Positions 2,070 through 24,946 of a stretch of 64,000 nt of DNA are shown in pieces (the first letter of the stretch is position 1; every line of letters starts with the position of its first letter). The translations under genes and the position numbers were made by a program. Location of the stretch: assembly GCA_963663475.2 (NCBI GenBank), contig CAXXJV010000001.1:896001-960000 (forward strand), read 5' to 3'. Under the pieces are notes generated by a model. It was not told the DNA's origin and ran no database searches. It saw only the letters and a list, made by a program, of their open reading frames with translations. This DNA comes from Candidatus Cloacimonadales bacterium (lineage in GTDB: Bacteria; Cloacimonadota; Cloacimonadia; Cloacimonadales; JAFGVF01).

Positions 2070-2086
2070 TTCATTCCTCCTTAGAA

Positions 2087-5002
2087 TTATAAGTTGTTAT
2101 ATTCTTCTTCGATTCTAGTCAAAGAGTAGCTAGAGATAATTAAAATAGTAAATGATGGGATAACAAATAATATATTCGAGAATTTGGCATGGCTTAGTAA
2201 ACAAGCTGGAATACCGACTATCGGAGATGTCCCTGCTACATTACCTATAGTAATAAGGTAATGGGAAATAATTAGTCCAGTTATAGCTAAAATGATATTA
2301 TTATAAGTTTTTTTTATTAGTGCTATTTCAGGATATATACTGTTAATATTACCAGATTTTTTTATGCTATTGAAGAATAACCAGAAAATTATCGATGCTA
2401 ACCATACAATTCCCCACCTTTTATATATAAAAAAGAAAAAGGATAAGGAAAAGTCATCTTTAATCTGTGGGACATTATCCAGTAGTGAAATTGAAGATAT
2501 GTTGCTGTTCAAAAAATGAGAAGATAGGTAAAATTGTTCATTTAGTATTGTCCATGGGTATCGGCACATGAAAAATCTTTGATGAAGGTAGGTTCCATTT
2601 GCAAAGTTGAAATAAGTTATGTAGCAGATGAAAAATAGCATTAATAGAGCAAAAGAAGAAAGATGTCTACTCTTTTCTTGGAGGAAAACTATTATAAATG
2701 ATATACTGAAAATAACCATATAGGATTGGTCATCCAAGCAAAAGGCAAAAGATATCGCTAGAATAAAACAGAGAATCCAACCCCAATACCTTGATAATGA
2801 ACTATTTTTACTATAAATATAAGTTGCCATAATAATAAATATTAGTTTTATTAATTCAAAGATAGGAAGATGTCTTCCAACCATAAGGATTCCTAACTCA
2901 TTTCCTCGAATTATCTGAAAAAAGAACAAAAGTAAAGAGTAGAAAAATATTTGAGGGAAAATATTGTATTTATTCTTATTAGCTTCAGTATTAAGGGTAC
3001 TATTTAAAAGGCCAAAAAAACCTTTTTTAAATGGGTCATCAGCTATATAATAAAATTTTTTAAATAAATAGCCGATAATAGAGACTGTAGCCAATGAGAA
3101 GATAATTCCGACTTTTAGTGACCTAATAAGTTCATTTTGCAAATAGTGAAGTCTGGGGGAATAAAAACTCATGATTGTCAAGTTTAACAAACCTTGGTAA
3201 CATAGTAATATAAAGATCAAGATAAAAGTTATTATTTGATTATCTATCCTTAAATATTGCATCAAGAAAATAACAAGAAGAGCAATAATGGAAAATATGC
3301 CTGTGATTTTGAGAATCTTATGGCGTATATTAACAGGTTTTGAGTAATTAATTTTAGTTTTCGACGAATGCTGACTATTTGTAAGTTCATTAGAAAATGT
3401 AAAATCATCTTGGTAGTAGTACTTTCTATTCTCATTTTTTGTATTAGTTATCACTAATAAACTATCTTCTTTTGAAATATCAAAATCAGAGTAGCCGATT
3501 CTAAATGATGGTTGATCATTAAATATTCTTCTTTCTTGAAGTTCATATAAAGAGTTAAAGTTATTTTCTCCCATAGATTTAACTTGAATATTGTGTTTTG
3601 CTCTAGGGCTGTAGTTAATTATTGAAAGGGTAATATCAGTTCTGAAAGAACTTAAACACAATAATATAATAGCTATTAGGAAAGTGACTCTAAAAAAGAG
3701 CATTTTTTTCTGCCAAAGTCTTACCAAAAGTCTTACAATGATTACTTTGATTGCATTCACAATCTTCTTCCATGCTCTATTATTATTAGGTTCTTCTATA
3801 TCATTAACTAAGGGAATATTTTCAATCTTACTCTTATCAGAAGAAAAAATTAAAATCAAATGAATGGTAGCTATATGAATAAAAACAAAAAGAATTATAA
3901 TGTCTAAGGAACTAACCAATGAAATATTACTAATAAGTGGTGTTTGGGTGATTATTAATGACATCCAGTTTAATATTAAATACGTGATAAAAAGGTAAAT
4001 AAGTGATAACACAAAAGTATTAATCAGGGATAATACTTTTGATAAGAGCTTATTTTTTACTGATGACGATCCTATCCTAAATGGCAATGTAAGTATATAA
4101 AATAATCGTGAAGCAAAGAATATAAAAACTCTTAAATTTAATCCTAAGTCGATGTTGATAGTTTCTCCAGTGAGGGTATAATTATGTAAAATATATAAAT
4201 ACATGGTCATGAATAAAAATAATACAATTAGAATTAATATAAGAAATGTTAAAGAGTTATAACTAAAAAACATCGATAGAATAATTAGAGTAATACAGAA
4301 GCAAAAAAACACGATAAACTTAGGAATTTTATTCCATAGTTCTCGATTAAGTTCAACCACCTTACTAGAATTTCTTATAATATATGAGGAAAAATCATTT
4401 AAGTATTTTTTATAAGGTGAGGAAAAGATTCCAATCGCTAATATTAGTAGTATGAGGGAAGGTATAAATCTATTTAAGTATTCAGGTAGATTAAATAAAT
4501 TTGATGTAACCCTAAAAATAACTTTCTGTGGAGAATTAAATTCTTTTGGAGGGAAAAAAGTAAAAGGTAAAGCGCTCCAAAGAAAATGTATTTCTTTATT
4601 ATTGCCATAAGAAATAATCTTAAAAAACTTATAGTCATTAAAGTCAATTTGATTATTATTTAGATTGATTTTATCTCCATCTTTCAACTTGTAATTTGAA
4701 AGGTAACTATTTCTTAGAACAACTCTATTAGTTGCTGATAAATTCTTGAATGAAAAATTTTCATAATCAGAAGAAGTAATAGCTAAATGATGATCACTAA
4801 TTTTGGGTAGATTTAAAACTATATCATTATCATCTGAAGAGCCAAGAGTTAATTCAAAGTCATCACTATTAGCAGGTAAAGGATAGATGTAACTAGTTTC
4901 AGATACTTTTATTATTTTTTCATTTTCCAATTTATGATAGGGAACGATAAAACTTATCATAAACAAAATAATAAAAATTGTGATAGTCAATATATTTCTC
5001 AT
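2087..5002 (-). CDS. FHA-like domain plus multi-TM region plus C-terminal FtsW/RodA/SpoVE (SEDS)-like domain
   Basis: N-term LTLGSSDDNDIVL..ISDHH..LKDGDKI (FHA-like); C-term LPIFELIKL, VPQIKDDFS, GNVAGTSPIVGIPACLLS resemble SEDS QPSE, PExHTDF and GxxPxxGIPLP motifs. Confidence 0.7.
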   Translation of the reverse strand: MRNILTITIFIILFMISFIVPYHKLENEKIIKVSETSYIYPLPANSDDFELTLGSSDDNDIVLNLPKISDHHLAITSSDYENFSFKNLSATNRVVLRNSYLSNYKLKDGDKINLNNNQIDFNDYKFFKIISYGNNKEIHFLWSALPFTFFPPKEFNSPQKVIFRVTSNLFNLPEYLNRFIPSLILLILAIGIFSSPYKKYLNDFSSYIIRNSSKVVELNRELWNKIPKFIVFFCFCITLIILSMFFSYNSLTFLILILIVLFLFMTMYLYILHNYTLTGETINIDLGLNLRVFIFFASRLFYILTLPFRIGSSSVKNKLLSKVLSLINTFVLSLIYLFITYLILNWMSLIITQTPLISNISLVSSLDIIILFVFIHIATIHLILIFSSDKSKIENIPLVNDIEEPNNNRAWKKIVNAIKVIIVRLLVRLWQKKMLFFRVTFLIAIILLCLSSFRTDITLSIINYSPRAKHNIQVKSMGENNFNSLYELQERRIFNDQPSFRIGYSDFDISKEDSLLVITNTKNENRKYYYQDDFTFSNELTNSQHSSKTKINYSKPVNIRHKILKITGIFSIIALLVIFLMQYLRIDNQIITFILIFILLCYQGLLNLTIMSFYSPRLHYLQNELIRSLKVGIIFSLATVSIIGYLFKKFYYIADDPFKKGFFGLLNSTLNTEANKNKYNIFPQIFFYSLLLFFFQIIRGNELGILMVGRHLPIFELIKLIFIIMATYIYSKNSSLSRYWGWILCFILAISFAFCLDDQSYMVIFSISFIIVFLQEKSRHLSSFALLMLFFICYITYFNFANGTYLHQRFFMCRYPWTILNEQFYLSSHFLNSNISSISLLDNVPQIKDDFSLSFFFFIYKRWGIVWLASIIFWLFFNSIKKSGNINSIYPEIALIKKTYNNIILAITGLIISHYLITIGNVAGTSPIVGIPACLLSHAKFSNILFVIPSFTILIISSYSLTRIEEEYNNL

Positions 5003-6009
5003 TGTTTTTCAACCTTGAGTGTGTATAAGCCAAGATCATAAGTCTCGCCATATTCTATTTCTTTACCATTAATTATCCATTTATTAGTTTCTAGCCTAAT
5101 TTTTTTGGGAAGCTCTGAAGATTCAGATGGGAGATACACTTTCTTGTAGGTGGCATGATTAGTGAAAAAATACTTAGGTATTTCTATTTTTAAATCTATC
5201 TCGCAAGCAAAATCAGATTCAATATCTTCTCTCAGGTTAATACAGCTTGCTCGACTGGCATTACATGAATAACAAATTTCTCCACTGTCATCTTTATAAA
5301 TTCCGATAACTGCTATGTCTTTCCCATTTCCATCTACAAATTCAAAGTTTTTACTGTTAAGATATAGTTCCAGTTTAGTAGTATTCCCTAATCTCTCAAT
5401 CACTTTCTTAGCAATTTCAGATAGTGATGCAAATTTAATTTTTTTTATTAATGTGAATTTACTTAGAAGGTCATTAATATTTATTACTCTTTCCTTTTCA
5501 ACGAGTTCAATATTTTTTTTCTCATCTTCAAAGCTAATTACTTGAGGATTAATATCTCTAATTTGCACAAAATCATTACTAATAACAGATTTACTGTTTG
5601 AATTCATAATAGTAGCAAATGGATCACTACTTATTAAGCAAAATTCATTATCTTTAATATTAAGAGAAATCGCTTTTTTATATGTGAGATTAGATGTACC
5701 ATTTAAATAATACTGATTAGATAAGAATTTATCATGAATCATTAGATAAGCTTTATTGAAGTCAATATGGGAGTATATGGTTTTTAAGTCAATTTTTATC
5801 CCAAGATAAGCTTTTGGCTCTTCGACATCTCCTATAAAGTATCTAAAAACTGAAGGAAGTATCAATGTTAGCTTATTTTTTTCATTACTAATTACTGATT
5901 CCATTTCCTTATTATCTTCATTTTTTGCCTGTATTTTTTCCTTAATCAATTTAGTAATATAGTTATTTGAAATCTCATTTAAATCTAAATTAATTTGAAT
6001 TATTTTCAT
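4999..6009 (-). CDS. hypothetical soluble protein (336 aa)
   Basis: Long ORF with RBS; 4-bp overlap with downstream gene. Confidence 0.75.
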   Translation of the reverse strand: MKIIQINLDLNEISNNYITKLIKEKIQAKNEDNKEMESVISNEKNKLTLILPSVFRYFIGDVEEPKAYLGIKIDLKTIYSHIDFNKAYLMIHDKFLSNQYYLNGTSNLTYKKAISLNIKDNEFCLISSDPFATIMNSNSKSVISNDFVQIRDINPQVISFEDEKKNIELVEKERVININDLLSKFTLIKKIKFASLSEIAKKVIERLGNTTKLELYLNSKNFEFVDGNGKDIAVIGIYKDDSGEICYSCNASRASCINLREDIESDFACEIDLKIEIPKYFFTNHATYKKVYLPSESSELPKKIRLETNKWIINGKEIEYGETYDLGLYTLKVEKQ

Positions 6010-6021
6010 GTTTATCCTTCC

Positions 6022-9000
6022 TTAATAAGTTGATAAGTTCTGATTATTGATGACATAGTCTCGAAACTCTTTAAACAGATTTACAGCAATTTCACTTGTT
6101 TGGTGTACTGAGTTAAGAACCAAAGAAAAGTAATATGTTTCACCTTCATATTCCCAGATACCTACAAACCAAGAGTTGTTTAGTTCTCTTTCATTACTGA
6201 GAGTTGAAGTTCCAGTTTTTGCATATAATCTTCCTAGGTTAGGAGGATCTTTAGAATATTTTTCTCCAATGTATGATTTTAGTCTAGGCATATAAGAAGT
6301 AATTATATTATTATTTATTGAAATTGCCTGTCCATTATATATTTTTTCCCCTATTTTGATTGATTTGAATAAATATGGCAATTTGATATATCCTTCATTA
6401 ATTAAAGAAAGAACCATGAGTTGTTGAAAATTGGTTAGAGAAGGAGTAACATCACCAACGGCAGCTTGTACAAAATCCCAACTGAAAAGCTCATTGTTAG
6501 GTAGAAATGAAGGATTAACAATTAAATCTTCAGCTATTGTGTCATGAAACAATAGTGAATTTCCTAATGAATCTAATAAATTACCTGTATAGGTTAATCT
6601 TTGGTTAAAGAATAATTTATCTCTCCAATAGTTAAAAGGATAATTTAAATATTCGTCTTCTTTTAGGCAGTAACCTTTAGGGCGAATATATGTAATATCG
6701 TCATATGAGTCGATAAAATCAAGGTTCAGGTGTAACATAGCATAAGAAAAATAAGTATTATAGCTATGTTCTAAGGCTTTTTGCAAATTATTGTCAGTAG
6801 GAGTGAAAACTGTATTTTCAGTTTCAAAATTTTTATGATTAAGAGTAATATTTTTATCAGGAGAAAAGATAAATGACTTTCCTTTGATATTATTCCAGTT
6901 ATCATTTCCGTTATTCAAATTAGGATTGTTTGTATAATCATCATGTAATAGGATATCAACATATTGTAGTCTAATATCATCTTCTTCTAATAAGGAGTCA
7001 GCATGAAGTAGGGTCATGGCGTTAATAAGTTTAATAGTTGAGCCTGGTGTTGCAGGGCTTTTGAAGTTATGATTTAAGTATCTGTTATTGAACCCTGAAA
7101 CATTGCTTCCATAACTTAAATCAACCAATAAGTTTCTTTCATTTCTTGGGTTATCGAAATAAGTGGAGTCTATAGATGGGTATGATGCAGAAACTAATAT
7201 CTCTCCATTTCTTTTAGTTAGTAGAAAAGCTCCCCAGGGTTCTGTTTTATCGTTTACTAAATCTCCATCTTTAAAACTAAAGTCATTAACATAAGATTCT
7301 AAAAGTCTATGGGCATATTCTTGCCAATCAGAATTTATTGTAGTTTCTATTTCAATTTTTTCATTTTTATACTGATTGGATAGCTCTTTAAAGTATGATT
7401 CTAGTCCAACAGTTTGTTTGGATTTATTATCATAAAAACCAAGCAAATTACTAAGTCCTCTCAAAGAAGAATAATTTCTTTTAGAATCTGGTGTGGAAAA
7501 GGCCAATATATTATTGTCCCTATCATAAATATTTGGTAATATAATATCAATTTTATCAAAAACATTCCTACTAACAGAAATGTCTTTTAGTTTTCCTTTG
7601 CTAAGTAGTAATAATTTGTTAGTAGGACCTAATGGTGAAGTATAAGGTTTAATCTGTACAGCAATGACTCCATTGGCAGATACCATATCTCCATTACTTA
7701 GCAATCTCCATGTTGAGTCTTGAATCTCATAAACAAGAACATCATTATTAAAGTCATAAAATATTGGACTTGAAACAGGCATATCATATCTAAAATAGTA
7801 GAATGCTTGTTCACTCTTTGGAGATATATTCTCATAGGGAAGAATGATTTTATTATCGTCAAGAGAATCGACCCTAACAGCTTGCAATCTATTAGAAGTG
7901 TAATGTTTTTCTCCAATATTTCGCATGTTATCGGTAAATGAACTTGGAGCAATATAACTGTTTAAGCTGCTTCTCCAGTTTCTATTTGTTGGAAATCTAG
8001 TATTATTGATTTCTAAGTATCCTTTTAAATAAGGATTTGGAAATAGTTTGACACTATTGTTATGTGTGATAAGGGATATTTGAATATTCTCTCTGGGAGC
8101 TGAGTTAATAATAATTTTTTTATTTCTATCACTGAAATCTCCTGAAATTACCTTATCAAAACCTCTGAGTAAATAATCACCAGTTGCACAAATCTTAACA
8201 TAACTTACAGTTTCTCCATCCTCAAGATTAAAATCAGTAGGTGTAAATATGAATTCTCTTTGGTGATTGACTGGAGGGTTTATCTGTAAGGGGAAGGCAA
8301 TAAATGATCCGAAATTTCGCTTAAAATAAGTGTCTCTATTATAACTAATAGCTCTCTCTCTAACATTGTTATGACTAACAAACCATGAATTATCCGTTGT
8401 AACAAATCTTTGTGTTTTATTCACGTGATTGTATATTGCGAAGGTAGCTGATATTCCTGGCTGGAAAATCAAACTTTGAGTTTCTGTTATAAGTTCTTTT
8501 AATAATGGTTTTAGTGCCAATTCATGATGCTTATTGATTTTCTTTAGTTTTTCATCACAGAGTAAAGAATCAGTAATGATGTCTCTTTTATAGTTTAAAG
8601 AATTATTTAATGGCCTAGAAAGCATATTATCTAGGTATTTGGTTTTGAAAGTGAACATTACTTTTTCATAATCTTTTTTAAAAATTGCTAAGGAAACACT
8701 ATTAGGAATAATTGCATTTTTTCTATAATCTATTGGTTTTAAAAGTTTGTTTTGAGAAACAATTATATTCTTTTTATCTCTACTTAGCTCTTTATGAATC
8801 TCAAGACCAGATTTATTTTTGAAAATTAACAGAGCTGATCTTGCTAGTTGGTCAAGAGAAAATTTGTTTTTATCTTGAATACTTATTGATACTTTCAGAT
8901 CATCTCTCAAATAATCACTTTGACTATGATTATTTAAAGGATGTTTATAATACATCTTATGTTTTTCAAGCTTCTGGACTATTTTTAAATTAATTTCTTT

Positions 9001-9615
9001 TTCTGCTAATTTTATAAGTATTGAATTTTCTTCAGTTAAAAGCGTAGGAAGTCTAACAGGGGTTAGATTGTTATTATTTCTCAGATAAAGATATTCGTCT
9101 GAATTAGGATATGTTGGATAAAGTACTAGTTGATTTTCTTGAAAGTCTAAACTTGCAATTAAATCTGGAATAAAAGTGTGGTCAGAAGATTTGTCAATAA
9201 CAATACTAGATTTTTTTTGATCAAAACCTATGTGAATAGTTCTACTACTAAGATCACTTCTATAAGCGTCGAAAATTGTCCTGTAGTAGAAATCTTTAGG
9301 CCTTGTATATAGTTCAAAATCAAGATCTTCAAAAGATATGATATCTCCATTTTTTAATTCATTAGTATTTGAAGTAATCAATTTATCGTTTATATAAGTA
9401 TTGTTAATATGAGATTTCGAAATCCAATTGTTATTTTCAAAATTAATTTCCAAAAGATCTGATCTACTTAAAAGTTTATCAGTCTCAACAATTATATAAT
9501 TATAATCGCTAGATACTTCTCCATTTTTCATTATACTGATGAGTTTTAATGAAAGGGATAGCATTGTAAGAGCTAAGAAAAGGACAATGGCTAAATTACG
9601 ATATAATATTTTCAT
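6022..9615 (-). CDS. Large class B penicillin-binding transpeptidase with N-terminal TM and FHA-like region
   Basis: PGSTIK (SxxK), HSYN (SxN), AKTGT (KTG); pedestal motifs IYDRDNNILA, VGLE, ETTINSDWQ, GEILVSASYPS; N-term NTYINDK..LKNGDIISF is FHA-like. Confidence 0.85.
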   Translation of the reverse strand: MKILYRNLAIVLFLALTMLSLSLKLISIMKNGEVSSDYNYIIVETDKLLSRSDLLEINFENNNWISKSHINNTYINDKLITSNTNELKNGDIISFEDLDFELYTRPKDFYYRTIFDAYRSDLSSRTIHIGFDQKKSSIVIDKSSDHTFIPDLIASLDFQENQLVLYPTYPNSDEYLYLRNNNNLTPVRLPTLLTEENSILIKLAEKEINLKIVQKLEKHKMYYKHPLNNHSQSDYLRDDLKVSISIQDKNKFSLDQLARSALLIFKNKSGLEIHKELSRDKKNIIVSQNKLLKPIDYRKNAIIPNSVSLAIFKKDYEKVMFTFKTKYLDNMLSRPLNNSLNYKRDIITDSLLCDEKLKKINKHHELALKPLLKELITETQSLIFQPGISATFAIYNHVNKTQRFVTTDNSWFVSHNNVRERAISYNRDTYFKRNFGSFIAFPLQINPPVNHQREFIFTPTDFNLEDGETVSYVKICATGDYLLRGFDKVISGDFSDRNKKIIINSAPRENIQISLITHNNSVKLFPNPYLKGYLEINNTRFPTNRNWRSSLNSYIAPSSFTDNMRNIGEKHYTSNRLQAVRVDSLDDNKIILPYENISPKSEQAFYYFRYDMPVSSPIFYDFNNDVLVYEIQDSTWRLLSNGDMVSANGVIAVQIKPYTSPLGPTNKLLLLSKGKLKDISVSRNVFDKIDIILPNIYDRDNNILAFSTPDSKRNYSSLRGLSNLLGFYDNKSKQTVGLESYFKELSNQYKNEKIEIETTINSDWQEYAHRLLESYVNDFSFKDGDLVNDKTEPWGAFLLTKRNGEILVSASYPSIDSTYFDNPRNERNLLVDLSYGSNVSGFNNRYLNHNFKSPATPGSTIKLINAMTLLHADSLLEEDDIRLQYVDILLHDDYTNNPNLNNGNDNWNNIKGKSFIFSPDKNITLNHKNFETENTVFTPTDNNLQKALEHSYNTYFSYAMLHLNLDFIDSYDDITYIRPKGYCLKEDEYLNYPFNYWRDKLFFNQRLTYTGNLLDSLGNSLLFHDTIAEDLIVNPSFLPNNELFSWDFVQAAVGDVTPSLTNFQQLMVLSLINEGYIKLPYLFKSIKIGEKIYNGQAISINNNIITSYMPRLKSYIGEKYSKDPPNLGRLYAKTGTSTLSNERELNNSWFVGIWEYEGETYYFSLVLNSVHQTSEIAVNLFKEFRDYVINNQNLSTY

Positions 9616-9629
9616 AATAATCCTAGTTG

Positions 9630-11426
9630 CTATTGTTTAACAAATATAGTTAGATTAGTATAGATGTGCTCATCGTCATATATGCACATAGTTTCTACCT
9701 CATAGATACTACCACTATCTAATGAATCATATACTGTTTTGAATAAATCTGGTTCAAATTTATTTAGAATAGAGTACTTTTTTGATTCAAAACTAATGTT
9801 ATCACTGAGTAAAGTGCCATCAGGTTTTGTAATTAAGGTATCATTAAACATCAGTGGAACTGTCTTTGGATAAAGGAAATTAAAGTTGTAAATTTGCTTG
9901 GCTACAGAAATTAAATCTTTAAATAAAATATTGATTATTGGATGTAATGAATTTATTTTGCTATCTTTATATAAACTAATTAACCTAATTCTATTTAGAT
10001 TATTTAGGTAATCCTTTAAAGCGCTTTTATTTTTAACATTTATATTACCTAGGAGGGATAAATAATTCATGTAATCATTAGTAATATCAAGAATTTCCGC
10101 TTCTTCTTTTATTTGATTGAAAATTGTTTCATATCTTTGTAAGCAACTTTCAACAAAACTTTCGCTATGTTCTAGTTTTATTTCTTGGATTTTAGCTTCG
10201 TAGCCTTCAATAGCCTTTTCTTTATCTGCTTTTATTTGTCTTTCCGATTCTTGGCTAATAGAAAGAAGTTTCTCTAACTGAGATTTCTCTTTTTTAATCT
10301 CTTTATACTTTGTTTCTAAAGATGATAAGAGTTTTAAATCATAGTTAAGCCTTTCATTTTTAATTTTTTCGTTCTTAAACTCTATTTTTTGGTTTTCCAA
10401 CTCACTTTCTTTAACTTGAATATCACTATTTTTCTCATCTAGCTTATTCTGTAGTTGGACTATTTCCTGATTTAAGCTACTTATAGCATTTCTTCTATAT
10501 CTTTCTTCTGAAAATAAATTTCCAATTAATTCACTAAGAGTTTCAATTGAATCTCTATGTTTATTGAACTTTTCTTGGGCATCTTTTGTTAGATTATTAT
10601 GGACAAAATTAATTTTTTCATCATCAGCATGTGAAAATCCAGATTTGTTATTAAAATGAGTAATTTTAATATTTGTATTATTTTTTGATTCAATCAACTT
10701 CTTTATTTGAGATAATAAATCATCATAACAAAAAACATTTTCCTGAAGAGAACGAAGTAATTCCTTATTATTTTGTTCTAAATCTTTAACATTTTTTTTG
10801 TATTCAGCAATTGCTTTATCTTCTATTTTAGAGGGCTGAAGGGGTTTATCAAGTTCAGTGATTGGTCTTCTTATCGATTTTGGGAAAGTGGTTAATGGCT
10901 CGTTTTCAATAACTTGCTCAGACTTAGGTGATATATTTTGATTTTTCAATTGACTTTTTTGAATGCTAACGCCCTCTTTATAAGCAATCTTCTGTGTATT
11001 AACCTTACTCTTAATATCACGATTTTTACGCTTAATGACTATTAGGCAACGAATAGTACTTATAAGAAAGATTAGACAAAGAATAGATACTATTAGTAAA
11101 ATTGAATCATTATTTAATATTTTTTCCTTTTTATTAGAAATATTATCAACGGATTCTTTATTTATCTTAGTACTTAGTACATCTCTTTCAATAACTTTAG
11201 TTGAACTTTTGATGTTATTTTTAATATGTTCAATAACCTGGTCGAGTTCAGAAGAAACAGAATGTAGAAATATTATGTGAATAGTATCTATTTTAGTTGA
11301 TTTTGTAGTATTGTCAGTATTAGAGTAGTCTGTAGAATCTTTTATACTTTCATCTTTCTCCTCTATTGCTATCATTATTGAAGATAATGCAAGAGTGATA
11401 ATTAATATCAAGATTATTTTTTTCAT
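9630..11426 (-). CDS. Signal peptide/TM-anchored coiled-coil protein with possible GrpE-like C-terminus
   Basis: N-terminal hydrophobic signal, TM ILLIVSILCLIFLISTI, long heptad-rich region, tail SGSIYEVETMCIYDDEHIYTNLTIFVKQ. Confidence 0.7.
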   Translation of the reverse strand: MKKIILILIITLALSSIMIAIEEKDESIKDSTDYSNTDNTTKSTKIDTIHIIFLHSVSSELDQVIEHIKNNIKSSTKVIERDVLSTKINKESVDNISNKKEKILNNDSILLIVSILCLIFLISTIRCLIVIKRKNRDIKSKVNTQKIAYKEGVSIQKSQLKNQNISPKSEQVIENEPLTTFPKSIRRPITELDKPLQPSKIEDKAIAEYKKNVKDLEQNNKELLRSLQENVFCYDDLLSQIKKLIESKNNTNIKITHFNNKSGFSHADDEKINFVHNNLTKDAQEKFNKHRDSIETLSELIGNLFSEERYRRNAISSLNQEIVQLQNKLDEKNSDIQVKESELENQKIEFKNEKIKNERLNYDLKLLSSLETKYKEIKKEKSQLEKLLSISQESERQIKADKEKAIEGYEAKIQEIKLEHSESFVESCLQRYETIFNQIKEEAEILDITNDYMNYLSLLGNINVKNKSALKDYLNNLNRIRLISLYKDSKINSLHPIINILFKDLISVAKQIYNFNFLYPKTVPLMFNDTLITKPDGTLLSDNISFESKKYSILNKFEPDLFKTVYDSLDSGSIYEVETMCIYDDEHIYTNLTIFVKQ

Positions 11427-11469
11427 AATATACCTTTGATCTTATTTTGTAACTAGTGAATATCTGCTA

Positions 11470-11889
11470 TTAATCCAAAGCATTTTTTATATTGCTGATT
11501 GTTGTTTGAATTTGATTGTTATGAAAGGAATAACTTTCCAGAGATTTTTGAATAAAAGTTCTTAAGTCATTGTATTTTTTTTCAAAACTATTATTTCTTA
11601 AAACTTTGTTTTCTTCCTTTAACTTTGTTTTTAGTACTTCTAACTCTTCATTTTTTTTTTGTAATGAACGTTTTTCTTTTGTTAACTCTTCATTACTTCG
11701 TAAAATGTTTTCTTTTTCTCTTTGTAGCTGTTGGATTTTTGATTCAAAATCACTAAGATTGTTTTTGTTTAGTTCATTATTTAAATTCTCTTGGTTAAGT
11801 ATTTCATTATGTCGTTTTAAGGTTGATACTTGTTTTTCTAATTCTTCAATTTGTTTTTTTAGTAAATTTTCATTTGTAGTTTCTTCCAT
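11470..11889 (-). CDS. coiled-coil hypothetical protein (139 aa)
   Basis: RBS AGGAG; E/K/L/N-rich heptads. Confidence 0.75.
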   Translation of the reverse strand: MEETTNENLLKKQIEELEKQVSTLKRHNEILNQENLNNELNKNNLSDFESKIQQLQREKENILRSNEELTKEKRSLQKKNEELEVLKTKLKEENKVLRNNSFEKKYNDLRTFIQKSLESYSFHNNQIQTTISNIKNALD

Positions 11890-11917
11890 AATATCTCCTA
11901 TAGTAATTAGTCATTTA

Positions 11918-14900
11918 TTATTGATTAGGTAGGTTTGTAAAAGGCCATAAGCTAATATTATAGCCAATGTTTTTAGAAAAGTCAATGTCAGATAACTCAA
12001 CAGGCCGAGGTTCATTATCATCAATCTTAATTGTTAAGTCGTTATCATTTCTTATAAGTTCTACTGAATAATTTCCATTTTTTCTAGGTACTTGATATTT
12101 ACCAATATGAATATAAAATGGAGACTCTTTTACTAAAGCTGCATTTTTATTACTTTTATATTCTTTGGCTATTATAGAAGAACATTTGAAAAGCTCTAAA
12201 TAAGCTTCCTCATTACCTATAATCAAACTACTAGGGCAATTATGAATATTGAACTGATTATTTCCATTCTGGCTTCTTTCGAAGAAATACATGTGTTTAT
12301 TTATGTTACAATAAAATCCATAAAGGAACTTGTTTTCTTGTAGCTCTCCAAAATCTATATTAGATATCTTGTTGTTGCCAATACCATAAAAGATATCATC
12401 ATATATCTTTAATCCCTCAACAACTTGGCCTTTGGGTCTTTCGGGAATAATGAAAGAAGGAACAAAATTAAATGATGATAAAGTCGCCTTAATAATTTCT
12501 TGTATTTTAGGTGAATAGCCTGCTAACTTACTTCCACGTCCAACAATAGCTACATCTATTTTTTGTTTTTCTTGAACATGTCGAGTATCAAAAATTAAAC
12601 AAATAGCTTCTTTTATAGAATCAATTAAATACTTCCTAGTATTGTCATCTTTCCAAAAGGTTGATAGATTGACTAGTAAACTATTTATTTCATCTTCATT
12701 TTTATTCATGTAAGAAGTATAGTCTTTCTTGAAAGTTTTTTTATCTGATGTGGATAAAATATATTGATCATTGTGGGTAAAAAATTTCTTTTGTTTGTTA
12801 ATGAAATTTTTTGCTTTTAACAGTTCTCTTTTCTCCATCAACCTATAATTTGGAAATATTGCTTGAGTTATGAGACTATCAATAGCATCACCTGCAATGT
12901 TATAGCTAAATCTATCGAGAACTTCAACATCCCATCTATTTGTAATGCTCCATTTAATCAAGCTAAGATCAGTTGTTCCTGCTCCGATATCAATAACCAA
13001 TAAAAACCTATTTGTTAACTGAGCATCTTGATTTCTAAAATGATTTAAAATGTTTAAAGCAACAGCATCTGATTCGGAGATAAAACTAACTTCACACTGC
13101 TCTTGATAATATCCAACAAGTTGCTTCTCTATTTTTTCTTTAACAATCTTAAGAGTGTTATTGGGTAATGATATAAAAAATTGCATTGAGGTATTGTTCA
13201 TTATTTCTGGTTTTAAATCCATGTAATGATCAAGAAACTGAATAGTAGTCTGTAGATATAGCTTGTCCATTGGGATATTGAATATCGAAAGGTTTTCTTT
13301 ATCAATTAAAGGTTTGAATAATTCTCCATCATAGTATCCTGGTTCAGGAGTATCTTCGGAATTTATAGTTAAATTCATAAGTTCCCAGAGGTTAGGTAGT
13401 TTTTCATACTGGATAAAATATTTTTCAGAAGGTATTATATTTTCAGGTTCAGCTATTGAATTTAGCCTTGGGATTTTGAACAGACATTGCGATGGAGTTT
13501 GATACTTATCCAAATACTTTATACTATCATTCTTGCTTTTCATAAAATCAAAGAATGTTAAAGTCGAGATAAATTCATCATCAAAATTTGGTATATCTGC
13601 TGATGTTATCAGATTTTGCTCGTTTCTAGCATATATTTGGTTAATTTTAACTAACTTACTTTGATTACCGATACCAGCTATTTCAGCATAGTTATTATTT
13701 TCATCATAAGATCTGATATTTATAGCATTAGCAGAAGTACCTTTATCAAAATAGACTGCATAGTTTCTAGGAGGATTTAGTTTAATTAGTGTCTCTTTTG
13801 GGAAGTTCGCAACTGTTATGTTGTCTGGTCCTATTACTTTCACAACAAAAAATAATTTGACCCTACATTTTACGCAAGAGCTAATTTTAATTGAATATTC
13901 TTTACTTGCACCGATAGGAATGTTTACATTGTCTAGGATATATTCATAATTAAACGTTTTTTGGTTAACGCTAAAAGGAAGCTCGTTTATGCTATTGGGC
14001 TTAGCGTTATCCTTATTCTCTGGTATCGAACGCAGTTTAATAATTAACTTAAAATTATTATATAGCTCTGATATATTATTAATAGTGATAGTCCCAATGC
14101 TCTGAGAAACAATATTATGCGATCTTTGGTTGTAAATACCTTCTTTTTTTAGTTTATCAATATAGAAGAAATTCGGGGTAAAATTTATTTCAGGGTAAAC
14201 TTCATTTTTATTTCTCCAAATAGAGAAAGGGCAACTTGAGTTGTTAGAATTCAAGGTAAAGTTTAAAAAATCAGATGGATTAGAGTAAGAATAATTATTC
14301 AAGTCTAAAGTTACTTTAATTGTAAAAGACAATCTGCCTCTATATAGTTTCTTGTTATTTTCTTTGCTCAAGAGAGTTATTGACTTTTTATCCCCATTAT
14401 TGGACTTTCTTTGATAAAATTTCATTGAGTTATTTTTTTTAAAATTAGAACTCAAAATATCTAAGCAATCTAAGCCAATGATTACATTTTTTCCATCAGC
14501 ATGCGTTATATTAATAGGGATAGTAATTTCAATATCTAAGTATTTTAAAGCCTTTGTTTCCATCAAAAAGTTAAATTCAAAAGAGATGGGGTCTTTTTTT
14601 GAGAAAATTGCTTTATCTGGTCTCAATAAGGATATTGATTTTATTTCCCAGTCTTTATTAACCTTAGTAGTAGGAAGAAATAGGAAATAACCAAAAATAA
14701 GCAAGCAAATAACTATAACAGTGGCAGAGATAATTAAAACAATAATATATTTTTGTGTATCACTAATCTCGTCCTGAATATCTGGAGACTTGACAAATTC
14801 ATATATCTTTTTAAGCATCTTTATGTATGCAAAGGGTTCAAAATACTTATTATAAGAGATAGGAATTACAGATGAGTTTTTTATTAAGAATGGATAATCC

Positions 14901-15973
14901 TGTGGTCTAAGATTCATTCCTTTAATATATTTATTATTAAGTTTGTGAGATACACCATAATTTATATTTACAACCGATCCATTTATATATTCACTTACAT
15001 CAATAAGTGTCTCATGTTCAAAATTAACATTTCCGAAGTTTTGATTGTTGATAGATAAGTTAAATTTTACATCATGGTTTTGGTTTTCAGTATTTTCATG
15101 ATGGGGTTTAATGAATAAATATGTTTTTTCTAAAACATGGTACGTTTCAAAATTCAAAACTGGTATAGGAACAGAAAAATTAAAATCACTAGGTTTAATT
15201 TCAAGTTCTTTAACACAAATTCTTATATGTTGTTGATCAGGCCTCTTAAAATCGAGATCAATTGGGTAATAAGTAAATAATTGGTTGAAGCTTTTCAGAG
15301 AATCATAGAAATTAAAAAGGTCTTCTTCATTACTTTTATAACCTGAATTATCTAAAAAAGCAAAGGCATCTCTATTTTCTTCATCAGCATTTACCGCTCT
15401 AAAAGATTCCGAATTAACAATTTCATCTGATATCCTAATAATAACAATTCTGTTGAAAGATAAATAATCATATTTAGTAGTTAGCAGTGTTGCGAAATAC
15501 TCAAGTGAGAACAAACGGGTAGATAACCTATTGAAGAAAGATGAAATGCTTTTTTGAGTTATCAAATAATCTAAAACTTTAAGTGAATTATTAATATTTT
15601 TCTCATTAGCTTTTTCTGGTTCAAATTCAACTTTAAGATAATCCTCTAGTGAAGTATACATGTACATATGGTTTTTCTGAAATTGCTCTCCAAAACCAAA
15701 TTTTACAAGAGTAAAATAGTCTGTATCCTCTTTCATATTTAGTTTTTCAATAACTCTTTGAAAATTGTAGGTAGATTCTAAATCTTTATCAAAAAAAGAG
15801 CATATGTTTGACCATTTGTTTAGATTTGATGTACCATTATCAGTATACATTGTTTGGCTGCCATCAATTGCAAAAATATATAGGGTAGAACTTGAATTTT
15901 CATTTGAAAACAAGTTATATGGGATTATTGCTAATAAAAAAATAATTGTTAATAATTGTAAATAACGAAACAA
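11918..15973 (-). CDS. Signal peptide-vWA-like-TM-Hsp70/actin-fold ATPase fusion protein
   Basis: Likely start TTG 15973 after AAAGGAG (ORF track start 16018). Signal MFRYLQLLTIIFLLAII; MIDAS-like YIFAIDGSQTM and IIRISDE; TM YIIVLIISATVIVICLLIFGYFLFL; Hsp70 motifs VYFDKGTS, ISLPNN, ISESDAVA, LVIDIGAGTTDLS, IAGDAID, IVGRGSKL. Confidence 0.8.
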   Translation of the reverse strand: MFRYLQLLTIIFLLAIIPYNLFSNENSSSTLYIFAIDGSQTMYTDNGTSNLNKWSNICSFFDKDLESTYNFQRVIEKLNMKEDTDYFTLVKFGFGEQFQKNHMYMYTSLEDYLKVEFEPEKANEKNINNSLKVLDYLITQKSISSFFNRLSTRLFSLEYFATLLTTKYDYLSFNRIVIIRISDEIVNSESFRAVNADEENRDAFAFLDNSGYKSNEEDLFNFYDSLKSFNQLFTYYPIDLDFKRPDQQHIRICVKELEIKPSDFNFSVPIPVLNFETYHVLEKTYLFIKPHHENTENQNHDVKFNLSINNQNFGNVNFEHETLIDVSEYINGSVVNINYGVSHKLNNKYIKGMNLRPQDYPFLIKNSSVIPISYNKYFEPFAYIKMLKKIYEFVKSPDIQDEISDTQKYIIVLIISATVIVICLLIFGYFLFLPTTKVNKDWEIKSISLLRPDKAIFSKKDPISFEFNFLMETKALKYLDIEITIPINITHADGKNVIIGLDCLDILSSNFKKNNSMKFYQRKSNNGDKKSITLLSKENNKKLYRGRLSFTIKVTLDLNNYSYSNPSDFLNFTLNSNNSSCPFSIWRNKNEVYPEINFTPNFFYIDKLKKEGIYNQRSHNIVSQSIGTITINNISELYNNFKLIIKLRSIPENKDNAKPNSINELPFSVNQKTFNYEYILDNVNIPIGASKEYSIKISSCVKCRVKLFFVVKVIGPDNITVANFPKETLIKLNPPRNYAVYFDKGTSANAINIRSYDENNNYAEIAGIGNQSKLVKINQIYARNEQNLITSADIPNFDDEFISTLTFFDFMKSKNDSIKYLDKYQTPSQCLFKIPRLNSIAEPENIIPSEKYFIQYEKLPNLWELMNLTINSEDTPEPGYYDGELFKPLIDKENLSIFNIPMDKLYLQTTIQFLDHYMDLKPEIMNNTSMQFFISLPNNTLKIVKEKIEKQLVGYYQEQCEVSFISESDAVALNILNHFRNQDAQLTNRFLLVIDIGAGTTDLSLIKWSITNRWDVEVLDRFSYNIAGDAIDSLITQAIFPNYRLMEKRELLKAKNFINKQKKFFTHNDQYILSTSDKKTFKKDYTSYMNKNEDEINSLLVNLSTFWKDDNTRKYLIDSIKEAICLIFDTRHVQEKQKIDVAIVGRGSKLAGYSPKIQEIIKATLSSFNFVPSFIIPERPKGQVVEGLKIYDDIFYGIGNNKISNIDFGELQENKFLYGFYCNINKHMYFFERSQNGNNQFNIHNCPSSLIIGNEEAYLELFKCSSIIAKEYKSNKNAALVKESPFYIHIGKYQVPRKNGNYSVELIRNDNDLTIKIDDNEPRPVELSDIDFSKNIGYNISLWPFTNLPNQ

Positions 15974-16016
15974 ATTTTCTCCTTTATTATTCATTATAAA
16001 GATATAATTATTGTTC

Positions 16017-16221
16017 AAGTCAAAAAAATCTATTAGCTAAAGAACATTCTATAGTTACTTTAGAATGTTACTATTTTTTGACTAAGCTTCGCCCTATGAC
16101 TTACAGAGCTTCTGAAGCACTTTTTATATGTAGTATGCGTTTCTTCCTTGTTTTGGAATTTTTATTGATCTTGATGCACTTAGTATGATTCAAAAAGAAA
16201 GTAAATTTCTTTCCTTGTCAA
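16017..16221 (-). promoter_or_regulatory. putative promoter (-35 TTGACA at 16221-16216) and structured 5' leader of the accessory operon
   Basis: TTGACA on minus strand without a clear -10; two hairpins at 16018-16083 and 16086-16118. Confidence 0.35.
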
Positions 16222-16717
16222 TAAAAAAATGTGTTTTAGAATTTTTTATTCTTTTTTAATAAAATAATCTGCAACTGTAACTTGTGATGGGACTTACTTA
16301 CAGCCGATTTTAACCTAGGTTTAAAAGTACTTGTTGATAATTTTTTATCAGATTTTCTGTTTTTCACAAAAGAAATGAGTAAAAGCTTTTTAATTCTACG
16401 GATATTTTCTATAATATTTAGAAACGCGAAACTAAACTTATAATTGATTCATCTAGGGCAAATTTAATTTGAATTTAAAAACATCTTTTTCATCTTCGTA
16501 GCGATGGTTTAGAAAATCTTGATGTAACTTTCGTGTTGAATTATTTCTCCCTCACATCCCCCGCCAATTATTCCCATTGACAGATTAGAAAAATTATATT
16601 ATTTGATTTATTCTCTAATAAAAGAGTAGTTTTTGTGATTAAGACAACACTTTTCATAACCTTCACCTTTAAGCTACTTAAGTAATTGGAGATAATATTA
16701 AATCAAGGTCTGAACAT

Positions 16718-22094: not shown

Positions 22095-22291
22095 AACCCA
22101 ATAATGCAGTAGACCTTTGTTAAACCCAAAATAATGCAGTAGACCTTTGCGAATAGCACTATCTTCTTTTGCAAAAGTAAGCTACATAATTTTCAGGAAT
22201 ATATATATTATATGCCTTCAAATTCTGTAACTTATTTTGCTAAAAGAATCTAGCACTCTTCATCAAAGTTCTACTGCACCATTCGGGTTAA
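22093..22291. mobile_element. MITE-like ~170-bp palindromic element (22120-22291) preceded by a duplicated left end
   Basis: TTAA-bounded; ends TTAAACCCAAAATAATGCAGTAGACCTTTG and CAAAGTTCTACTGCACCATTCGGGTTAA; near-identical to 24328-24496 and 44119-44287. Confidence 0.7.
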
Positions 22292-22363
22292 AAAAAATGA
22301 AGGGAATAAAATTTTTATTGCAGGAAAGTGTAGTTATGTAAGTCTTAAATTATAGGAGAGAGT

Positions 22364-24327: not shown

Positions 24328-24496
24328 TTAAACCCAATAATGCAGTAGACCTTTGCGAATAGCACTATCTTCTTTTGCAAAAGTAAGCTACATAATTTTC
24401 AGGAATATATATATTATATGCCTTCAAATTCTGTAACTTATTTTGCTAAAAGAATCTAGCACTCTTCATCAAAGTTCTACTGCACCATTCGGTTAA
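24328..24496. mobile_element. MITE-like ~170-bp element, abutting a right end of another copy (24303-24331) at a shared TTAA
   Basis: Near-identical to 22120-22291. Confidence 0.7.
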
Positions 24497-24946
24497 AATA
24501 ATGGCTCTACTTTCAATTCTGCACACATCTTCACAAATTTTTACAGAAAAGCCTTGTCTATTTAGTAGATTAATACAAATCTAATCCAGTAGAGGATTTC
24601 TTATTTTTTACTCCTTTAGGTGTAGTGATTTTGAGGATATTTAATGTTGAAATTCTCTCAACTTTGTTTTATTTTTTTCCAAAAACCCACTCTACTTTGG
24701 AGAGAGCCTTATCTATATGGTGTCTATTAGTTATAAAGCTAATAGAAAAGTGATGCCCCTCCCAAAGAGGCCTAATAGAGTACCAATAGACCGTAAAGGA
24801 AATTTGTGGCAGGTTTTGAGCAACTTTCGCTCCTTTTCTGGTAAGCATATTTTATTTTCTTAACATTTGCAGACCAATAAATCTAAGTTTATCTCTATGT
24901 CCTAACTGCTTAATAATTCATATTTTAATCATAAAGAAAAAAAATA

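Follow-up and report, generated by a model that had tools for sequence, protein, structure and literature searches.

Gene A, the first of nine genes in an operon of a Candidatus Cloacimonadales bacterium, encodes a predicted protein in which an exported N-terminal part, a single transmembrane helix, and an ASKHA (actin/Hsp70-fold) ATPase domain are joined in one chain. Most of the operon lies at the start of a stretch of 64,000 nucleotides, hereafter the window (GenBank assembly GCA_963663475.2, contig CAXXJV010000001.1, positions 896,001 to 960,000). We tentatively propose that protein A spans the membrane and organizes or switches an accessory machine of the peptidoglycan-synthase type, whose other parts the operon would also encode, and give this reading a probability of about 0.45. 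It is preferred over a stand-alone sensor for two reasons: the operon also contains a paralogous ATPase, an extra transpeptidase, a polytopic protein with an FHA domain, and coiled-coil adaptors; and the ATPase of A is closest to the ATPases of an envelope cassette linked to penicillin-binding proteins (PBPs). The initial annotation of this DNA described a receptor-like transmembrane transducer with an ATPase as its output. The topology of that proposal holds, but in the context of the operon a receptor is less likely than an organizer of a machine. Letters A to I are used below for the nine genes and for their products.

Gene A Encodes a Membrane Protein with a Large Exported Part

The open frame of gene A spans positions 16018 to 11918 on the minus strand, the stop codon occupying 11918–11920, and it offers three starts. 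The TTG at 15973, from which residues are counted throughout, has an AAGGAG 5 nt upstream and is thus supported by a ribosome-binding site, as had been claimed. The ATG at 15994 is the start in the database copy (P0002, 1,358 aa) and fits the N-terminus of the sole close homolog, P0003 (MNNKGES...), and the TTG at 16018 is the first codon of the frame. Read from the sequence, all three starts lead into the same N-terminus, with Lys/Arg, a 13-residue hydrophobic run (LQLLTIIFLLAII), and then PYNLFS/NE, which agrees with the signal peptide of the initial annotation. Apart from this segment, the hydropathy scan of A contains one strong internal segment, with Kyte-Doolittle values up to 3.19 in 19-residue windows at residues 403–439 and a core at about 407–433, where a transmembrane helix had been placed near 410–435. 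Acidic residues precede this helix (DIQDEISD) and basic ones follow it (TTKVNKDWEIK...RPDK), hence a topology with the N-terminus out and the C-terminus in. Hydropathy and charge pattern both agree with the claimed order of exported part, helix, and cytoplasmic ATPase, and the predicted protein fits a type I topology in which about 380 residues are exported, a single helix crosses the membrane, and about 900 residues lie in the cytoplasm.

Protein A is almost unique in sequence space. A search of 5.8 billion proteins returns only A itself and P0003 (two of 7,996 scored candidates), the latter being 74% identical to A, 1,359 aa long, and encoded on a 22.7-kb contig. Searching 1.84 billion cluster representatives with residues 20–1219 (phmmer) gives its own cluster and P0004 (8.1e-4), which is Hsp70-like and whose substrate-binding domain is degenerate, and nothing more; a search of genome contigs for deeper homologs gives none. 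The gene is present in one of 41 genomes (its own and 40 relatives) and in none of six genomes of the same genus. These homologs are too few for a useful AlphaFold2 alignment of A. The gene is nevertheless real beyond chance, as its frame of 1,351 codons stands in DNA of 28% GC and 74% identity is held in an independent assembly, and the fusion of its parts is no assembly artifact, since it is continuous in two independent assemblies.

The Cytoplasmic Part Contains an ASKHA-Fold ATPase Domain

The motifs of the actin/Hsp70-type ATPases occur in A in canonical order: phosphate-1 (DKGT, residue 743, as initially annotated), connect-1 (ISESDA), phosphate-2 (DIGAGTTD, residue 995), and adenosine (VGRGS, residue 1144). 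The claim of a full motif set is borne out by an alignment of eight ATPases, namely A and its homolog, the paralog G and its homolog, P0004, P0007, P0009, and the canonical Hsp70 P0008. The D and G of phosphate-1, the E..A of connect-1, the D.G.GT.D of phosphate-2, the GD that follows it, and the G of the adenosine motif are invariant in all eight.

Family models do not assign this domain to Hsp70 proper. In Pfam, MreB_Mbl (0.0042) and HSP70 (0.024) both match residues ~920–1160 below their cut-offs, HSP70 with 13.3 bits against a cut-off of 20.6, and the HSP70 search of the genome recovers DnaK and MreB, not gene A. The NCBIfam matches are BeeR (3.9e-7), MamK (5.8e-5), and MreB (0.047), and the PADLOC match is PDC-M61B (5.4e-6). 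In profile comparisons (hhalign), the joint profile of A and G aligns with 13 MreB proteins over 283 columns (86.7%, E 4.3e-6) and with 14 DnaK proteins over 72 columns (43%). Among the sequences of the PDB, the C-terminal half of A matches 8r2n (BeeR, 0.12), MreB (1.7), and nothing else in a phmmer search, and the N-terminal half gives a chance match only.

The C-terminal part (residues 735–1351) was modeled with AlphaFold2 from the eight-sequence alignment, with a mean predicted local distance difference test (pLDDT) of 45.6 and a predicted TM-score of 0.45; 74 residues reach a pLDDT of 70–90, mainly near the phosphate-2 and adenosine motifs. Among the Foldseek matches listed, all those that name a PDB chain are Hsp70, Hsp110, BiP, or DnaK, with E-values of 8e-9 to 4e-7, yet TM-scores of 0.23–0.39. 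VIA-align, which is independent of Foldseek, aligns 228–305 residues of the first 483 of the model with Z-scores of 13.0 to 9.7, and again all of the listed matches that name a chain have the actin, Hsp70, or sugar-kinase fold. These are near-ties between Arp, BeeR, Ta0583, BiP, ParM, MreB, MamK, PilM, FtsA, and sugar kinases. For this half of the protein, the structure prediction suggested at the outset returns actin, Hsp70, and sugar-kinase types among the listed matches that name a chain. By its motifs and its predicted model, the region of residues ~738–1218 is an ASKHA-fold domain that is neither Hsp70 proper nor MreB proper, and it is probably catalytically competent. The earlier label of an Hsp70 fold is right insofar as the fold searches point to the actin/Hsp70 fold, but ASKHA is the better name, because the MreB, MamK, and BeeR profiles score at least as well as Hsp70.

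The regions on either side of this domain (about 300 residues before it and about 130 after it) match no family in Pfam or hhalign. A degenerate Hsp70 substrate-binding domain was considered for the last 130 residues but is not supported (hhalign E 0.4 with DnaK, 0.22 with the C-terminus of G, 0.34 with that of P0004), in agreement with the earlier statement that A has no recognizable DnaK substrate-binding domain; family scans find none either. Homology between the linker of A (residues 436–736) and the N-terminus of G is likewise not supported (E 0.48).

The Operon Combines Two ATPases with a Transpeptidase and a Polytopic Protein

All nine genes share one orientation and are spaced −4 to 43 nt apart, gene A being the first (Table 1). 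Promoter-like matches are not more frequent than in shuffled sequences (6 versus 4.8, standard deviation 2.5), and a search for a terminator found none. Six of the nine proteins have no Pfam family over the cut-off. The paralog G has the motifs DMGTS, DIGAGTID, and SGRS, matches PDC-M61B in PADLOC (2.3e-8), and aligns with the ATPase part of A at 83.8% (hhalign E 7.9e-6). A homolog of G (71%) is encoded on the same 22.7-kb contig as P0003; hence, A and G travel together.

The C-terminal part of D matches the Pfam Transpeptidase family with 56.2 bits (cut-off 22.1, E 4e-15). It aligns over 313 columns with 21 canonical class B PBPs (FtsI and PBP2 of relatives; hhalign E 7.7e-5, reversed control 0.26), and its motifs S859TIK, S951YN, and K1133TG are in register with the catalytic SxxK, SxN, and KTG. 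Since the genome encodes FtsI, PBP2, and two class A PBPs elsewhere, along with two canonical SEDS genes, D is an extra, fifth PBP transpeptidase. This is reflected in the number of Transpeptidase matches, which is seven in this genome and five in each of six sister genomes, D being in the surplus. The FHA-like stretch of D is sub-threshold (E 0.0014–0.0019) and would be periplasmic, as it is predicted between the N-terminal transmembrane segment and a transpeptidase that is necessarily periplasmic.

The FHA domain of F (residues 52–114) is well above the Pfam cut-off (37.1 bits versus 20.7, E 4.3e-9). Its phosphothreonine pocket has Gly-Ser, where Gly-Arg is usual, and the side of the membrane on which it would lie depends on the predicted number of transmembrane segments. 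Residues 842–969 are collinear with the last third of the SEDS family in a comparison with 26 SEDS proteins (116 columns, hhalign E 0.0057 versus 0.057 for the reversed control), though with a probability of only 6.4%. This alignment sets VPQIKDDFSLSF over the family motif lPE.hTDfIFS and SPIVGIPACLLSH over PtTGvpLPFiSyGG. A SEDS-like glycan polymerase is thus a lead for the role of F.

Related ATPases Belong to an Envelope Cassette of Bacteroidota

A profile search with A, G, and their relatives retrieves P0007 (891 aa, 5.1e-6) and P0009 (892 aa, 8.7e-4), the latter encoded in a Taibaiella (Bacteroidota) metagenome-assembled genome. In this genome and in three more of its order, a gene for the ATPase is followed by genes for a bitopic protein of 339–367 aa and a giant protein of 1,752–1,828 aa. 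At all four Bacteroidota loci examined, the giant protein has about 20 hydrophobic segments and a KTG near its C-terminus. The cassette ATPase is present in four of the 101 genomes searched in that order, and Pfam recognizes no protein of the cassette. With the profile of five cassette ATPases, the profile of A and G aligns at 97.5% (E 6.2e-12, 197 columns; reversed 0.28), which is a better match than with MreB or DnaK, and both sides have the signatures ISESDA, D.G.GTTDLS, and SGR. The C-terminal part of the giant proteins, taken as a profile of four, matches class B PBPs at 90.1% (E 1.6e-6, 138 columns; reversed 0.2).

The resemblance of A and G to the cassette ATPases is confined to the core, as neither the linker of A nor the N-terminus of G has a match there. 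Proteins B, C, E, and H show no significant match with the Bacteroidota bitopic proteins, the best being B (0.015, over a coiled coil). At two of the Bacteroidota loci, a 280-aa bitopic protein is encoded upstream of the ATPase; the ideas that it is a vWA anchor or is related to the N-terminus of A found no support (E 0.041 and 0.49). Full-text searches did not find this association of an ASKHA ATPase with a giant PBP-like protein in print.

The Exported Part May Begin with a vWA-Like Domain

A DGSQT sequence of the DxSxT type lies at residues 37–41 of A, after a hydrophobic strand, and is unchanged in P0003. It resembles the metal ion–dependent adhesion site (MIDAS) of vWA domains. By eye, candidates for the distal Thr and Asp of such a site are STR near residue 150 and SDE near residue 182, about 110 and 145 residues beyond it. 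A look-up in the ESM Atlas scores 0.86 for residues 25–405 and 0.92 for residues 28–262 (101 of 256 features in common), and for the latter region all named sets among the matches listed are vWA families, of 171–234 aa. Scores of at least 0.9 occur in 4%–10% of shuffled proteins. With only this share of features in common, the score of 0.92 is rated as a lead only. Because this independent method gives the same family as the DGSQT motif, we put the chance of a vWA fold at roughly two in three; the exported part would then begin with a vWA-like, metal-dependent binding domain. The vWA domain with a MIDAS-like DGSQT in the initial annotation is therefore retained for its motif and its ESM Atlas score, but Pfam, hhalign, and AlphaFold2 give it no support beyond the strand, as detailed below.

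These features, namely a type I topology, a MIDAS-like motif on the exported side, the language-model lead to vWA, and an intact set of ATPase motifs, are those expected of a stand-alone receptor, whose exported domain would bind an external ligand and whose transmembrane helix would relay the binding to the ATPase as a signaling output. We consider this improbable. Family scans find no kinase, phosphatase, transcription factor, or cyclase in the operon, no earlier case of an ASKHA ATPase serving as a signaling output was found, and a tight operon with enzymes and adaptors suits a machine component, be it structural or regulatory.

Composition and Distribution of the Operon

From gene I to gene A (17.85 kb), the operon has a GC content of 27.8%, compared with 33.0% for the 2.9-Mb chromosome. 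No 18-kb window sampled is as low (standard deviation of such windows, 1.4%), and the operon is the stretch of lowest GC at that length. Five sister genomes, which are of different species, contain no DNA match to positions 198–16,068 of the window. The adjoining rimI and nadB are conserved in these genomes (93%–97% identity for the NadB protein), and the synteny with two of them ends just upstream of gene A. A 171-bp dispersed repeat (L002:15986-16156, contig 893986-894156) adjoins the operon at its 3′ end and has 267 BLAST matches in the genome, 155 of them of at least 120 bp. Further copies occur in the window at 22120-22292 and 24328-24497, and each sister genome has dozens of copies at 83%–98% identity.

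Low GC content, absence from five of five sister genomes, the lack of a match in the 40 relatives, and a flanking repeat would also be expected of a mobile conflict or defense island, in which infection or damage to the envelope would trip an Hsp70-like NTPase switch that releases PBP-like and polytopic effectors. Both ATPases match the PADLOC candidate PDC-M61B, and passages of two studies (PMC7159879; bioRxiv 10.64898/2026.10.19.760177) place Hsp70-like NTPases and vWA or FHA domains in predicted conflict systems. In these passages, the systems with HSP70 or vWA have other partners, i.e., GTPases, tubulin, MoxR, and effector domains. The PADLOC matches span only about 65 residues around phosphate-2, which amounts to generic ASKHA similarity. 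Moreover, family scans find no nuclease, protease, TIR, NADase, or other usual effector in the operon, there is no integrase or phage gene nearby, and the catalytic triad of D is still of the synthase type and aligns with that of class B PBPs. A conflict island is thus, like the receptor, an explanation of low probability.

Table 1. Features of Gene A and Its Operon, and the Related Bacteroidota Loci (window positions, unless a locus is named)
Feature	Position	Strand	Basis or remarks
Gene A, bitopic protein, 1,351 aa	11918..15973	-	alternative starts ATG 15994, TTG 16018
A, signal-peptide-like N-terminus, residues 1-24	15902..15973	-	read from sequence
A, putative vWA-like alpha/beta domain, residues 28-262, DGSQT at 37-41	15188..15892	-	ESM Atlas lead
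A, beta-rich periplasmic juxtamembrane region, residues 263-406	14756..15187	-	strands in low-confidence model
A, predicted transmembrane helix, residues 407-433	14675..14755	-	hydropathy scan
A, cytoplasmic beta-rich region, residues 434-737	13763..14674	-	without recognized family
A, ASKHA (actin/Hsp70-fold) ATPase domain, residues 738-1218	12320..13762	-	family scans, alignment, fold searches
A, C-terminal domain, residues 1219-1351	11921..12319	-	without recognized fold
Gene B, soluble coiled-coil protein, 139 aa	11470..11889	-	
Gene C, 598 aa	9630..11426	-	N-terminal signal or transmembrane segment, transmembrane segment ~102-134, long cytoplasmic coiled coil
Gene D, 1,197 aa	6022..9615	-	N-terminal transmembrane segment, FHA-like stretch 56-95 (sub-threshold), C-terminal PBP transpeptidase
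Gene E, soluble, 336 aa	4999..6009	-	without family
Gene F, 971 aa	2087..5002	-	N-terminal transmembrane segment, FHA 52-114, many transmembrane segments, weak SEDS-like motifs in last three helices
Gene G, soluble ASKHA paralog of A, 894 aa	1..2069	-	runs past window start (full L003:2385-5069)
Gene H, 276 aa	L003:1546-2376	-	outside window; two N-terminal hydrophobic segments
Gene I, lipoprotein with lipobox, 126 aa	L003:1169-1549	-	outside window
Bacteroidota cassette loci	L067:10001-21796, L208, L209, L210		791-892-aa ASKHA ATPase, bitopic proteins, giant protein

Surroundings of the Operon

Upstream of gene A, an intergenic stretch at 16260-16601 is 90% identical to the syntenic site in one sister genome, where the flanking genes are about 81% identical (DNA), and copies at 75%–76% identity are found elsewhere in two other sister genomes. 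Scans for Rfam families, tRNA, and tmRNA find nothing in it. It may be a small RNA or the remnant of a mobile element. Among the dispersed repeats there is also a nest of other multi-copy elements at L002:6898-8976, with units of about 200 bp and 480 bp and many copies in all five sister genomes.

Two further loci lie on the L002 side. One encodes an FtsH-like protein of 1,078 aa (L002:9417-12653, plus strand), with AAA at residues 657-791 and the M41 peptidase at 878-1054, preceded by an N-terminal extension of about 600 residues without family; at the DNA level it matches just a single sister genome (91% identity). The other (L002:13054-15865, minus strand) encodes a radical SAM/SPASM enzyme of 359 aa and a 145-aa open reading frame, adjoining a MORN-repeat protein of 370 aa. 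Four sister genomes lack a close counterpart of the radical SAM protein (29% identity at best), and the locus may be a peptide-maturation cluster.

Discussion

If A organizes or switches an accessory synthase machine, its ATPase domain, alone or with G and the coiled-coil proteins B, C, and H, would take an ATP-dependent assembled, or "on," state at the cytoplasmic face of the membrane. The transmembrane helix and the exported domain would pass this state on to periplasmic enzymes, the presumptive targets being the transpeptidase D and, as a candidate glycan polymerase, the polytopic F. The signal could equally well run the other way, from the outside in.

A number of observations weigh against this reading. 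The function of A is deduced from its gene neighborhood. Pfam finds no pedestal (PBP dimerization) domain in D, where the NCBIfam pbp2_mrdA match covers only 216-327 of the profile and the hhalign alignment starts at PBP column 248, and no SEDS domain (FTSW_RODA_SPOVE) in F, whose hhalign match to the SEDS proteins is of low probability. The giant proteins of Bacteroidota give no SEDS signal (0.17 versus 0.14 reversed), and neither D nor F matches them significantly (E 0.042 and 0.075). The model of the C-terminal part of A is of low confidence, and the two Hsp70-type sequences in its input alignment may have drawn it to that shape. For the exported part, Pfam finds no vWA family (VWA, VWA_2, VWA_3) even at E-values up to 10, and a VWA_2 search of the genome leads to seven other places (BatA/BatB-like and larger proteins) and none in gene A. 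The hhalign comparisons with 30 BatA-like proteins and with 64 vWA domains give E-values of 0.28 and 0.11, but the alignment covers only a strand of 13–14 residues (YIFAIDGSQTMY), and the reversed control also reaches 0.11. The AlphaFold2 model of residues 25–405, made from a two-sequence alignment, has a pLDDT of 37.1, and the structure prediction envisaged for this part thus lends the proposal no support. A fold search with this model gives only beta-sandwich matches, at residues 228–321 of the model, with Z-scores of at most 5.5 and within noise. Finally, the low GC content and the absence from five sister species suit a mobile accessory or conflict role equally well.

A membrane-tethered chaperone or pulling motor acting on a polypeptide or polymer, as BiP and mitochondrial Hsp70 do at translocons, with the exported domain as an adhesin or platform, would account for the Foldseek preference for Hsp70, BiP, and Hsp110 and for P0004 as the sole phmmer match outside the cluster of A, but it has the slimmest chance of the explanations considered, as no substrate-binding domain, J-protein, or GrpE is detected in A or the operon and sequence profiles favor actin-like families at least equally.

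A more specific form of the organizer can be drawn from the same data, although in this full form we find it unlikely. The MIDAS-type periplasmic domain would be wired through the single transmembrane helix to the ASKHA ATPase as an integrin-like two-way transducer, switching on or off a private, horizontally acquired peptidoglycan synthase made of D and F. Protein A would then unite, in a naturally occurring fusion, two parts of a wider FCB-group envelope cassette, its exported anchor and its Hsp70-like ATPase, and would reveal that they function as a unit.

Should A act as an organizer, it would offer a compact and testable model of how a cytoplasmic nucleotide state is coupled to wall enzymes on the outside, and it would carry the Hsp70-like/PBP cassette beyond Bacteroidota into another phylum, most of which is uncultured. 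With two-thirds of its proteins outside Pfam, the operon also shows how much envelope machinery is missed by standard domain models. The initial annotation held the architecture of A to be uncharacterized, and this stands: full-text searches of the literature find no description of it, nor of an Hsp70-like ATPase with vWA, FHA, PBP, or SEDS, although supplements might list such architectures. A 2025 survey of morphogenetic synthases (PMC12516126) treats the RodA-PBP2 and FtsW-FtsI pairs and describes fused SEDS–class B PBP "giant" proteins and noncanonical PBPs; its text contains neither "Hsp70" nor "FHA."

Comparison with Known Systems

The ATPase part of A resembles the nucleotide-binding domain of Hsp70 (DnaK, BiP, Hsp110) in its predicted fold, its motif set, and the spacing of about 150 residues between phosphate-2 and the adenosine motif. 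It differs by the connect-1 motif, which is NEPTAA in Hsp70 and ISESDA in A, by the approximately 250 residues between its phosphate motifs, by the lack of a recognizable substrate-binding domain, and by the membrane anchor. The exported part resembles BatA/BatB and integrin I-domains in having a hydrophobic strand that ends in D-x-S-x-S/T, and its exported location is that of integrins. In contrast with the vWA proteins of the same genome, which Pfam finds, A is missed by Pfam and has no significant vWA profile match.

Coupling of a cytoplasmic actin-fold domain to a periplasmic one, through the inner membrane, is known from PilM-PilN and from GspL, in which the cytoplasmic domain is N-terminal and, in GspL, lacks the ATPase motifs. 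A shares with these systems an actin-fold cytoplasmic module, a single transmembrane helix, and a periplasmic module. However, its modules are in the opposite order, it is much larger, it has a putative vWA-like domain, and it has the ATPase motifs that GspL lacks.

The Bacteroidota cassette has the closest ATPase domains and neighbors of like kinds, namely bitopic coiled-coil proteins, a transpeptidase of the PBP type, and a polytopic membrane domain. In the operon of gene A, unlike in that cassette, the synthase-like parts are distributed over two genes (D and F) instead of one giant fusion, two ATPases are encoded, of which one is joined to a transmembrane helix and an exported domain, and the host belongs to Cloacimonadota.

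In the elongation and division systems, MreB with RodZ and MreC organizes RodA-PBP2, and FtsA with FtsN and FtsQLB organizes FtsW-FtsI. The operon is like them in pairing an actin-fold ATPase with bitopic and coiled-coil adaptors, a PBP-family transpeptidase, and a polytopic protein. It is unlike them in several respects: there are two ATPase paralogs; D and F carry FHA-like and FHA domains; the parts are too divergent for standard models, supernumerary, and strain-specific, the SEDS identity of F being a lead only; and the ATPase of A is covalently joined, through a transmembrane helix, to a large exported domain. Actin-fold proteins place and switch SEDS-PBP synthases through separate bitopic adaptors; protein A would do so across the membrane in a single chain.

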